Shown here piece after piece: positions 60,881 to 64,000 of a stretch of DNA of 64,000 nucleotides. The DNA is from Escherichia coli (GTDB lineage Bacteria > Pseudomonadota > Gammaproteobacteria > Enterobacterales > Enterobacteriaceae), in assembly GCF_003018255.1 (NCBI RefSeq), contig NZ_CP027440.1. One strand, written 5' to 3'. Every line of letters starts with the position of its first letter. Positions within the stretch are counted from its first letter, which is position 1. The notes below the pieces were generated by a model. It searched no databases. It had not been told where the DNA came from and saw only the letters and a program-made list of their open reading frames with translations. The position numbers and the translations under genes are program-made.

Positions 60881-62212
60881 TTATAGGATAAAACGGCTCA
60901 GATCTTCATCTGCCACCAACGCATCCAGATGTTTGCTCACATAATCTGCGTCAATAGTGATGGTTTGACCGCTTAAATCGCTGGCGTCGTAGGAAATCTC
61001 TTCCATTAAACGCTCCAGAACGGTATGTAAACGACGAGCACCGATGTTTTCGGTAGATTCGTTCACCTGCCATGCCGCTTCCGCGATGCGCTTAATACCG
61101 GAGTCGGTAAACTCGATATTTACGCCTTCAGTCGCCATCAGTGCTTTGTACTGCACGGTAATAGAGGCATTCGGCTCGGTCAGAATACGCTCGAAGTCGC
61201 TGGTGGTCAGTGCCTGCAGCTCAACGCGGATTGGCAGACGACCTTGCAGTTCCGGGATCAGGTCAGACGGTTTCGCAATCTGGAACGCGCCAGAAGCGAT
61301 AAACAGAATGTGGTCAGTTTTGACCATCCCGTGTTTGGTGGAAACGGTGCAACCTTCTACCAGCGGCAGCAGGTCACGCTGAACACCTTCACGAGAAACA
61401 TCCGGACCGGAAGACTCGCCGCGCTTACAGATTTTGTCGATTTCGTCGATAAACACGATCCCGTGCTGCTCAACAGCGTCGATAGCGTCTTGCTTCAGCT
61501 CTTCCGGATTCACCAGTTTCGCCGCTTCTTCTTCAATCAGCAGCTTCATGGCGTCTTTGATTTTCAGCTTACGCGCTTTTTGCTTCTGACCGCCCAGGTT
61601 CTGGAACATGGACTGCAGCTGGCTGGTCATCTCTTCCATGCCCGGAGGAGCCATAATTTCAACGCCCATCGGTGCTGCGGCAAGATCGATCTCGATTTCT
61701 TTGTCATCAAGCTGGCCTTCACGCAGTTTTTTGCGGAATGCCTGACGAGCAGCGGACGGTTCCTGCTGCTGTTCGGTCTGTCCCCAGTTGTTTTTAGCCG
61801 GTGGGATCAGTACGTCGAGAATACGTTCTTCTGCCAGTTCTTCAGCGCGATAACGGTTTTTCTCGATAGCCTGGACACGTACCATTTTCACGGCGGCATC
61901 GGTCAGATCGCGAATAATAGAATCCACTTCCTTACCGACATAGCCCACTTCGGTGAATTTGGTCGCTTCAACTTTGATGAACGGCGCATTCGCCAGCTTA
62001 GCCAGACGACGGGCGATTTCAGTTTTACCGACACCGGTCGGGCCGATCATCAGGATATTTTTCGGGGTCACTTCATGGCGCAGCTCTTCGTTGAGCTGCA
62101 TGCGACGCCAGCGGTTACGCAGAGCAATCGCCACGGAACGCTTGGCGTTGTCCTGGCCGATGATGTGCTTATCCAGTTCGCTGACGATTTCGCGTGGGGT
62201 CATTTCAGACAT
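60881..62212 (-). CDS. hslU: ATP-dependent protease ATPase subunit HslU, 443 aa
   Basis: Walker A GPTGVGKT; peptide [37 protein letters not shown]... Confidence 0.97.
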
Positions 62213-62221
62213 GGGAGATCC

Positions 62222-62752
62222 TTACGCTTTGTAGCTTAATTCTTCGATGGTGTGGAAATGGTTGGTATAGATGCAAATGTCGCCTGCAATATCCAACGCC
62301 TTTTCAGCAATTTCACGGGCGCTAAGTTCAGTGTTTTCTAACAGCGCGCGCGCCGCAGCCTGGGCGTAAGGGCCGCCGGAGCCGATAGCAATAAGATCGT
62401 TTTCTGGCTGCACCACGTCACCGTTACCGGTGATGATAAGCGAAGCGGTTTCATCCGCGACTGCCAGCAGTGCTTCAAGTTTGCGCAGCATGCGATCGGT
62501 ACGCCAGTCTTTTGCCAGCTCAACGGCGGCTTTGACCAGATGGCCCTGATGCATTTCCAGTTTACGTTCAAACAGTTCGAACAGCGTAAAAGCATCCGCA
62601 GTACCGCCCGCAAAGCCCGCGATGACTTTGTCGTTGTACAGACGGCGGACCTTTTTCACGTTGCCTTTCATTACGGTATTGCCCAACGTGGCCTGACCAT
62701 CACCAGCGATGACCACATGGCCGTTACGGCGTACGCTTACTATAGTTGTCAC
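62222..62752 (-). CDS. hslV: ATP-dependent protease subunit HslV, 176 aa
   Basis: N-terminal Thr protease peptide [31 protein letters not shown]... Confidence 0.97.
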
Positions 62753-62820
62753 GAGCTGACCCCTTGGTTACGAATACAGAGTACAAACCCCGTACAAAAG
62801 TACGGGGCATAATGCAATTA

Positions 62821-62848
62821 TAGATGGGGGGGATTTTGAGGGTTTCAA
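62821..62848 (-). promoter_or_regulatory. hslVU sigma32 heat-shock promoter (TTGAAAcc-N13-CCCCATCTA on the minus strand)
   Basis: Plus-strand tagatggggg (62821-62830) and ggtttcaa (62841-62848) are the reverse complements of the sigma32 -10 and -35 consensus. Confidence 0.7.
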
Positions 62849-63804
62849 CCCCCGGCGGCGAGCCGAATGCAGTTTGTATGACCCGCCATCTTCAAGCGAT
62901 TGAGGGTGCTGTCTGCGTTCTCTTTGCCTTTCACCGGGCCAATGACCACACGATTCCAGCCATTGTTGGTGGTGATTTTCGAGTCAAAGCCTTCAAACGC
63001 CAGCTGAGCACGTACCGTCTCTGCCTGTTCCGCGCCTCTGAACGAACCGCACTGCACCATCCAGCGGCGTTCGTCTTTTTTCTCCGCCGTCGGTTTTGGC
63101 GCGTCAGCGGCACGAGCAACCGGCGCAGCTTGCTGCGGCTTCGACTGCGCGGTCGTGTGCGCAGGGGTTTGCAGCAGATCCTGGTACGGCTGCTGAGTAG
63201 AAGCCGGTTTAGACTGGCGCGGTTGCGCCTGTACCGGCGCGGCTTGCGACGTACGCGTCTGCTGCTGCCAGCTTTGTTCAGTCGTACGCGACTGCTGAGC
63301 CAGGCGTTGCTGCTCCGCTAATTGCTGCGCCTGACGCTGGCGCTGTAGCGTTTGCTGACGCTGTTCCGGCGTCTGTTCATTCCACGGAACTTCAACCAGC
63401 TGCGTTGGCTGCTGGCGCATATCAGCCTGCATTTGCTCAAGAAGCTGGCGTTGTTCTGGTGTCAGTTGCTCCGGCGTTTTCACTTCACCACCGGCAGAAG
63501 GTTCTGTAGGCGCACGCACACCCGGCTGGCGACTTTCCAGCTCTTTGATGTAGCGCCAGCGTTCTTCTGGTTTTGGTGGTAGTCCGTTTCCGGTCACTTT
63601 CTGGCTTTGCAGTGTCTCGGACTCTTCTTTCTTGTGATGCGTAATGAAGTACAGACCACCGATAAAGGTCACAAGAACGGCGGCAGCAATAGCGACCATA
63701 GCGGGAGAAACCGCAGGCAGATTTCGTTGCTTTTTCCGTGAGGTGCTCTTTTTTCGCCGCGAAGGTGCCGGTTGGCTGCGGCGTACATAATCTCGTTGTG
63801 CCAC
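62845..63804 (-). CDS. ftsN: Cell-division protein FtsN, 319 aa
   Basis: ORF-track peptide MAQRDYVRRSQPAPSRRKKSTSRKKQRNLPAVSPAMVAIAAAVLV... with Q/P-rich periplasmic linker and C-terminal SPOR domain. Confidence 0.93.
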   Translation of the reverse strand: MAQRDYVRRSQPAPSRRKKSTSRKKQRNLPAVSPAMVAIAAAVLVTFIGGLYFITHHKKEESETLQSQKVTGNGLPPKPEERWRYIKELESRQPGVRAPTEPSAGGEVKTPEQLTPEQRQLLEQMQADMRQQPTQLVEVPWNEQTPEQRQQTLQRQRQAQQLAEQQRLAQQSRTTEQSWQQQTRTSQAAPVQAQPRQSKPASTQQPYQDLLQTPAHTTAQSKPQQAAPVARAADAPKPTAEKKDERRWMVQCGSFRGAEQAETVRAQLAFEGFDSKITTNNGWNRVVIGPVKGKENADSTLNRLKMAGHTNCIRLAAGG

Positions 63805-63895
63805 TATCGTTTCGCTGTATTTATTCGTTCGTCAGCCCGCCATGTTACTTAAGCGGCGGGCCTTTGACCAGTCACGGCAGTCTTAAAGGTTTACT

Positions 63896-64000
63896 TTAAG
63901 GTAACGCGCGTGTTGATCCCCGGATGATAAGTTCGCAGTCCATTAAACGAGAGCCACTGCCAACGTGTTGCCCCTGCATTTGATCAAGCAATAACAGCAT
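63896..64000 (-). CDS. cytR: LacI-family repressor CytR, C-terminal 34 codons (5' end outside window)
   Basis: Hand translation of the minus strand from 64000 gives ...LLLLDQMQGQHVGSGSRLMDCELIIRGSTRALP with stop at 63896-63898; identity from gene order and recollection. Confidence 0.55.
   Translation of the reverse strand: MLLLLDQMQGQHVGSGSRLMDCELIIRGSTRALP

Follow-up and report, generated by a model that had tools for sequence, protein, structure and literature searches.

The RpoH-dependent promoter of hslVU (clpQY) in Escherichia coli and the known mRNA-stabilizing stem-loop in its 5′ leader

HslVU (ClpQY) degrades sigma-32 and other regulators, and the heat-shock response is therefore subject to feedback from the expression level of this protease. 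Lien et al. (2009; PMC2681174) reported that rpoH is needed for both the expression and the heat induction of a clpQ::lacZ fusion, which were lost in rpoH mutants, and that the clpQ leader carries an inverted repeat. The level of clpQ mRNA was lowered by a 40-bp leader deletion, by deletion of the inverted repeat, and by replacement of its 3′ arm with Ts; in the deletion mutant, clpQ mRNA decayed faster after rifampicin treatment. A stem with swapped arms (GGGGCATG/CATGCCCC), equal in stability, restored the mRNA level. The same authors cited the stem-loops of ompA and papA as an analogy: these are likewise stable, lie near the 5′ end, and prolong mRNA life independently of their sequence. Two other groups of RNA elements share features with the hslVU hairpin. 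The ROSE, fourU, and rpoH mRNA thermometers are, like the hslVU leader, structured leaders of heat-shock genes, and Rho-independent terminators also combine a GC-rich stem with a short loop shortly after an upstream stop codon.

Here, we analyzed this locus in a 64,000-nucleotide stretch of E. coli DNA (referred to below as the window). An earlier note made from the letters of the window had proposed a heat-shock promoter ahead of hslVU, followed by a stem-loop that could modulate the translation or stability of the transcript. We consider it highly probable that the locus comprises the RpoH heat-shock promoter of hslVU (clpQY) together with the known mRNA-stabilizing 5′-leader stem-loop catalogued in Rfam as RF02401.

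The hslVU locus and its heat-shock promoter

The genes ftsN, hslV, and hslU occupy the end of the window on the minus strand, and the list of open reading frames for the last 5 kb of that strand reads ftsN, hslV, hslU, menA, and rraA. A 401-bp query spanning the ftsN-hslV junction matched 5,425 of 5,426 complete E. coli genomes, many of them at 100%, and the annotation beneath the match names ftsN and hslV. Coordinates in K-12 MG1655 (NC_000913.3) equal the window position plus 4,059,535, a constant offset with zero indels, and the two sequences show 0 mismatches from 62448 to 62895, an interval that includes the whole ftsN-hslV spacer. This spacer measures only 92 bp and reads GGTTGAAACCCTCAAAATCCCCCCCATCTATAATTGCATTATGCCCCGTACTTTTGTACGGGGTTTGTACTCTGTATTCGTAACCAAGGGGTCAGCTCGTG on the minus strand. 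The genes, the promoter elements, and the start of the transcript are as follows.

60881-62212, minus strand: coding sequence of hslU (clpY), which follows hslV in the operon (open reading frame and annotation)
62222-62752, minus strand: hslV (clpQ) coding sequence with a GTG start (open reading frame and annotation in E. coli genomes)
62845-63804, minus strand: ftsN coding sequence, upstream neighbor of hslV, with its stop codon within the −35 element (open reading frame and annotation)
62848-62843, minus strand: −35 element TTGAAA of the sigma-32 hslVU promoter, overlapping the ftsN stop TGA at 62847-62845 (sequence)
62829-62821, minus strand: −10 element CCCCATCTA of the sigma-32 promoter, separated from the −35 element by a 13-nt spacer
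62813, minus strand: transcription start (A), corresponding to the capped 5′ end at K-12 4122348 (PMC6131387)
62753-62813, minus strand: hslVU 5′ untranslated leader of 61 nt, delimited by the capped start and the hslV start codon

The promoter has the layout TTGAAA-N13-CCCCATCT(A) on the minus strand and agrees in both elements and in their spacing with the sigma-32 consensus applied here (−35 TTGAAA, −10 CCCCATnT, spacing of ~13 to 15 nt). The pattern TTGAAA-N12-15-CCCCAT occurred once in the 64-kb window (0.05 matches expected). The comparison covered 80 hslV loci from a range of species; most belong to the Enterobacterales and a few to the Vibrionaceae or the Alteromonadales. A sigma-32-type motif preceded hslV in 68 of the 80 loci when a strict regular expression was applied and in 77 when a relaxed one was used, and the −35 form GGTTGAAA was kept in most of them. 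Lien et al. took TTGAAA as the −35 element for RpoH and found that a C-to-T change in the CCCCAT box (primer F3) abolished RpoH-dependent clpQ expression (PMC2681174). The near-consensus heat-shock promoter proposed in the earlier note is therefore the documented RpoH-dependent promoter of hslVU (clpQY).

Two further observations concern the promoter sequence. The −35 hexamer (GGTTGAAA) contains the TGA that ends ftsN, and this overlap is kept across most Enterobacterales, so the heat-shock promoter and the C terminus of FtsN are under mutual constraint. In addition, the −10 element of the sigma-32 promoter is overlapped at its 3′ end by a perfect TATAAT hexamer at 62822-62817 (minus strand; CCCCATCTATAAT), and CTATAAT or CTATACT is conserved in the Enterobacteriaceae. 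We considered a sigma-70 promoter acting through this hexamer and rejected it: the hexamer lies 19 nt from TTGAAA, the promoter scan made no call there, and the basal expression of clpQ also requires RpoH (PMC2681174).

The start of the transcript was taken from SMRT-Cappable-seq, in which the hslV-hslU unit extends over NC_000913.3 4120362-4122348 (reverse) under both growth conditions (Yan et al. 2018; PMC6131387). The resulting start, A62813, lies within 1 nt of the position predicted from the promoter geometry (62814) and 8 nt past the end of CCCCATCT, a distance in keeping with a sigma-32 start. According to the 2009 paper, transcription begins 71 nt ahead of the start codon (PMC2681174). 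That position corresponds to C62823 and is implausible because it falls inside the −10 box; the hslVU leader should be corrected to 61 nt rather than 71 nt. The earlier note had named a start downstream of the hairpin as the observation that would count against its proposal. The hairpin is transcribed from either start, 62813 or 62823, and the capped end at 62813 lies 5 nt upstream of the stem, which places the hairpin within the transcript. As for independent reports of an hslV start, the supplements of Kim et al. 2012 contained no entry or matching coordinates, and nothing was found in the ROSE in vitro data.

The leader stem-loop and its conservation

The leader folds into a single strong stem-loop, whose parts and surroundings are listed below.

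62787-62808, minus strand: leader stem-loop of 9 bp with a UUUU loop, −16.5 kcal/mol (folding and covariation)
62808-62800, minus strand: 5′ arm of the hairpin, GCCCCGTAC
62799-62796, minus strand: hairpin loop, TTTT
62795-62787, minus strand: 3′ arm of the hairpin, GTACGGGGT
62765-62760, minus strand: Shine-Dalgarno sequence AAGGGG, 7 nt upstream of the hslV GTG and outside the hairpin
62750-62807, minus strand: match to the cis-regulatory Rfam family RF02401 (ClpQY_promoter), full length (1-57 of 57)

The stem-loop spans +6 to +27 of the hslVU mRNA, is preceded by the unpaired nucleotides AUUAU, and consists of eight Watson-Crick pairs closed by an outermost G·U pair. Within the inverted repeat, a 20-mer, CCCCGTACTTTTGTACGGGG, forms a perfect DNA palindrome at +7 to +26. 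The earlier note had seen this repeat correctly but placed it at 62788-62809, one base away from its true position at 62787-62808. The 83-nt leader region gave a fold z-score of −2.5. Perfect 8-bp inverted repeats with 3- to 8-nt loops are common in the window (37, compared with ~7 in shuffled sequences), the usual excess arising from terminators and repeats; the case for the hairpin therefore rests on its conservation and covariation.

Two candidate features at the 5′ end were set aside. A longer helix in which the 5′ end is paired as well (UGCA/UGUA, UAU/GUA) was absent from the RNAalifold consensus across species and is thus not conserved. An AUG at 62810-62808 (minus strand), located at +4 of the mRNA and overlapping the first base of the stem, opens a 28-codon reading frame that overlaps the start of hslV and is out of frame with it. 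In the alignment this ATG gives way to CTG, ACG, CAG, and other triplets; it is not conserved, and the upstream reading frame is probably meaningless.

The match to RF02401 scored 63.6 bits (gathering score, 42; E = 3e-13) and runs through the Shine-Dalgarno sequence to the hslV GTG, the position characteristic of the family. In score, in location, in having a compensatory stem, and in the inclusion of that stem in the hslVU transcript, the leader element agrees with RF02401. The inverted repeat quoted by Lien et al. (PMC2681174) is identical to CCCCGTACTTTTGTACGGGG and has the same gene context. The element in the window and the RF02401 element are the same, with no difference of substance; the promoter and its leader hairpin are already known from RF02401 and from Lien et al. 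2009.

Conservation of the hairpin was assessed in the 77 hslV loci that carry the promoter. A hairpin with a ΔG of −10 kcal/mol or lower that starts by +15 was present in 65 of these, and the median z-score of the 5′-proximal leader was −3.8. Of the 65 loci with such a strong early hairpin, 50 have a stem that begins at +5 to +7. Covariation was evaluated in a plain MAFFT alignment of 48 distinct Enterobacterales leaders, which was built on sequence only and not fitted to any structure. From this alignment RNAalifold returned exactly the 9-bp stem, with standard pairs in 93.4% of the stem cells, compensatory changes in all nine stem pairs, and changes on both sides in 72 cells. None of 500 shuffles attained any of the observed covariation measures, and controls with slid partners were paired in 36 to 52% of cells. 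G·U pairs outnumbered A·C pairs in the stem (20 versus 6), an excess that modestly favors the hslV-sense RNA as the selected strand. These results show that the pairing is under evolutionary selection at a fixed position, 5 to 7 nt from the 5′ end.

The stem sequences themselves vary widely among genera (GCCCCGTAC, GCCCTGAGC, ACTCCGCGC, GCCTTACAA, and CCCCACAC), and stem length ranges from 7 to 17 bp, reaching 14 to 17 bp in Serratia, Yersinia, Rahnella, and Photorhabdus. Longer hairpins at the same position behind the promoter were seen in Serratia (L018, L024, and L025), Yersinia (L037 and L044), Rahnella (L032 and L035), and Photorhabdus (L042 to L063); they comprise 14 to 17 bp or are bulged, have predicted energies of −20 to −29 kcal/mol, and lie ~60 to 100 nt upstream of hslV. 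Variation was also found within the genus: a locus labeled Escherichia coli strain SCPM-O-B-8794 (L002, ~790 to 815) carries GCCCCGCACAATTGTGCGGGGC in place of GCCCCGTACTTTTGTACGGGGT, which relative to the window amounts to a compensatory change from U-A to C-G, a change of the outer G·U to G-C, and a different loop.

This pattern also bears on whether the palindrome is a DNA element. A perfect 20-bp palindrome at +7 to +26, directly past the start site, occupies a typical place for a repressor, and CCCCGTACTTTTGTACGGGG could be read as the operator of a dimeric DNA-binding regulator rather than as RNA structure. What is conserved, however, is the pairing and not the sequence: the arms change completely between genera, the stems vary from 7 to 17 bp, and G·U combinations, which are mismatches in DNA, are tolerated. 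Moreover, the swapped-arm stem restored the mRNA level under a heterologous promoter (PMC2681174). We regard an operator as hardly credible.

The distribution of the Rfam family is narrower than that of the hairpin. Among 20 diverse loci, RF02401 reached its gathering score in 8, belonging to Enterobacter, Kluyvera, Erwinia, Pantoea, Hafnia, Serratia, Cedecea, and Yersinia. Loci of Tatumella, Dickeya, Pectobacterium, Edwardsiella, Budvicia, and Photorhabdus remained below the threshold despite a hairpin at the equivalent position, and the long leader hairpin of Rahnella was likewise missed. These sub-threshold hairpins represent a modest extension of the distribution of RF02401, not a new kind of element.

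Effects on mRNA stability and translation

Sigma-32 polymerase recognizes TTGAAA-N13-CCCCATCTA and starts at A62813, so that the first 27 nt of the hslVU mRNA consist of AUUAU followed by a very stable 9-bp hairpin. In the reading that we consider highly probable, the hairpin acts as an autonomous module that slows decay and thereby raises the steady-state level of hslVU mRNA, and it neither senses temperature nor touches the ribosome-binding site. The mutants described above show that the positive effect of the hairpin on the mRNA level depends on its structure and not on its sequence. The earlier note had suggested reporter fusions with hairpin mutations as a check, an experiment that had essentially been carried out already in 2009 (PMC2681174). 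Of the two effects it had allowed for, stability is borne out by the mutants and by decay after rifampicin treatment, and translation is disfavored, the Shine-Dalgarno sequence lying outside the stem. The hslVU leader hairpin is among the few documented cases in which the mRNA lifetime of a protease operon is set by 5′ structure.

Regulation of ribosome access to hslV, with the hairpin serving as an RNA thermometer or translational switch, might be expected of a structure in the leader of a heat-shock gene, and the CCCC of the 5′ arm is complementary to the GGGG of the Shine-Dalgarno sequence, with which it is predicted to pair once the 3′ arm is blocked. Thermometers sequester the Shine-Dalgarno sequence or the AUG in a marginally stable helix. 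In contrast to ROSE, fourU, and the rpoH thermometer, the hslVU stem is very stable, excludes the Shine-Dalgarno sequence, and shows no predicted response to temperature: the Shine-Dalgarno sequence and the start codon lie at least 22 nt downstream of the stem, predicted pair probabilities in the stem stay at or above 0.70 across 30 to 80°C, and the predicted accessibility of the Shine-Dalgarno sequence is flat between 30 and 50°C (0.37 to 0.39). The authors of PMC2681174 likewise reported no thermosensitive segment (data not shown). The Shine-Dalgarno sequence itself is nearly invariant in the alignment of 48 leaders. Predicted accessibility was 0.43 to 0.44 in wild-type, hairpin-deleted, and swapped-arm leaders alike; since removal of the hairpin leaves it unchanged, occlusion of the Shine-Dalgarno sequence does not explain the deletion phenotype. 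Taken together, these predictions make a thermometer or translational switch very improbable.

The mutant with a disrupted 3′ arm (S-IR) requires separate comment. The change frees the C-rich arm, which paired with the Shine-Dalgarno sequence when the leader was folded alone; with the coding sequence included, the effect on accessibility was small (0.38 in S-IR versus 0.43). In these folding models, pairing of the freed arm with the Shine-Dalgarno sequence may partly confound this mutant, and this mutant alone. As a cause of the mutant phenotypes, occlusion of the Shine-Dalgarno sequence is thus unsupported for the deletion and possible only for the 3′-arm mutant.

With regard to the route by which the stem-loop stabilizes the mRNA, structure close to the 5′ end may hinder the 5′-end-dependent entry of the decay machinery (RppH/RNase E), and such hindrance could protect the primary transcript itself or come into play once the AU-rich 5′ tail has been cut for the first time. 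By analogy with the stem-loops of ompA and papA, hindered 5′-end-dependent entry is the most likely route. The analogy has limits. Protection of the ompA type at the 5′ terminus tolerates roughly 2 to 4 unpaired nucleotides. The five unpaired nucleotides ahead of the hslVU stem would exceed that range, a point that weighs to some extent against 5′-end protection. The hslVU hairpin also differs from those of ompA and papA in being active behind a vector leader: in the pBAD33 constructs of Lien et al. (primers F5 and F8, window 62787-62826; PMC2681174), the hairpin was placed downstream of such a leader and still worked. The “wild-type” construct in that series (primer F5) begins at CATCTATAATTG, ~10 nt upstream of the true +1. 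Because the hairpin worked behind the vector leader plus ~10 native nucleotides, strictly 5′-terminal placement is not required. A further difference from ompA is that no involvement of an sRNA or of Hfq was found (PMC2681174). We also considered the stem-loop as an obstacle to scanning by RNase E and rejected this as the main mechanism, since the scanning enzyme reportedly gets past simple orthogonal stem-loops (PMC9943677). Mutations in hslVU that arose during heat adaptation (Batarseh 2020) were coding or 3′-intergenic, and none fell in the leader.

The stem-loop and the end of ftsN transcripts

The position of the hairpin raises another question. On the strand that encodes ftsN, it begins 37 nt past the stop codon of that gene, and ftsN adjoins hslV upstream in at least 68 of the 80 loci. 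The hairpin could accordingly be read as an intrinsic terminator that serves ftsN and cytR-ftsN transcripts, either as its main function or as an additional one; on that view, the shortness of the spacer (92 bp) accounts for its place close behind the hslVU promoter. Any effect on hslVU would then be secondary, and in some genera the hairpin might even attenuate hslVU. Homologous hairpins followed by seven Ts and with terminator-like scores were found in Tatumella (L040, 1453 to 1483) and “Ca. Pantoea persica” (L073, 1447 to 1480), so that these homologs do combine a hairpin with the U-rich tract of an intrinsic terminator. Runs of five to seven Ts after the hairpin, with canonical terminator scores, also occurred in L061, L065, L070, L036, and L043, and T-rich tails are common in the Erwiniaceae, the Pectobacteriaceae, and Hafnia. 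SMRT-Cappable-seq, moreover, indicates that the cytR-ftsN unit ends somewhere after ftsN.

In E. coli, the findings differ. The hairpin is followed by UUUGUACU, and a consensus scan made no terminator call on the minus strand; the tail, TTGTACTC, is not the U-rich tract that, with a hairpin, defines an intrinsic terminator. Curated Term-seq data from three conditions contained no minus-strand 3′ end in K-12 4122200-4122499, an absence of evidence rather than evidence of absence, because ftsN is weakly expressed. SMRT-Cappable-seq also detected a read-through unit comprising ftsN, hslV, and hslU. The hairpin also raises, rather than lowers, clpQ expression (PMC2681174). In summary, the E. coli hairpin differs from intrinsic terminators in having no proper U-tract and no mapped minus-strand 3′ end and in its place behind an active promoter, from which transcripts continue past it. 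A role as the ftsN terminator, alone or in addition, is therefore unlikely, though not negligibly so, and a leaky ftsN terminator as a second role of the stabilizing stem-loop in E. coli is a possibility that we hold at a similarly low level.

A combined history, which we consider somewhat less likely still, is that the hairpin is bifunctional: an ancestral ftsN terminator whose U-tract decayed in E. coli, where the stem would have been kept as a stabilizer and would serve at most as a leaky terminator, and which in genera with U7 would be an attenuator of hslVU. If this were true, each hslVU transcript would have to pass a terminator hairpin in its first ~35 nt, and the hairpin would be a promoter-proximal attenuator of hslVU where the U7 tract is kept (Tatumella, some Pantoea, and Pectobacterium).

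Two minor observations were made on 3′ ends and tails around the stabilizing stem-loop. Curated Term-seq data (Adams 2021, supplementary file 1) include a plus-strand 3′ end with a low score at window position 62812 (K-12 4122347, plus), which lies 4 nt past the hairpin on that strand, antisense to the hslV leader, and is not accompanied by a U-tract after the hairpin. A scan of 62200-64000 for a promoter that could be the source of an antisense RNA returned no sigma-70-like site, and the 3′ end looks as if an exonuclease had trimmed an antisense or read-through transcript as far as the palindrome. Finally, in the genera with U5-7 tails, a terminator-like hairpin stands downstream of a conserved sigma-32 promoter.
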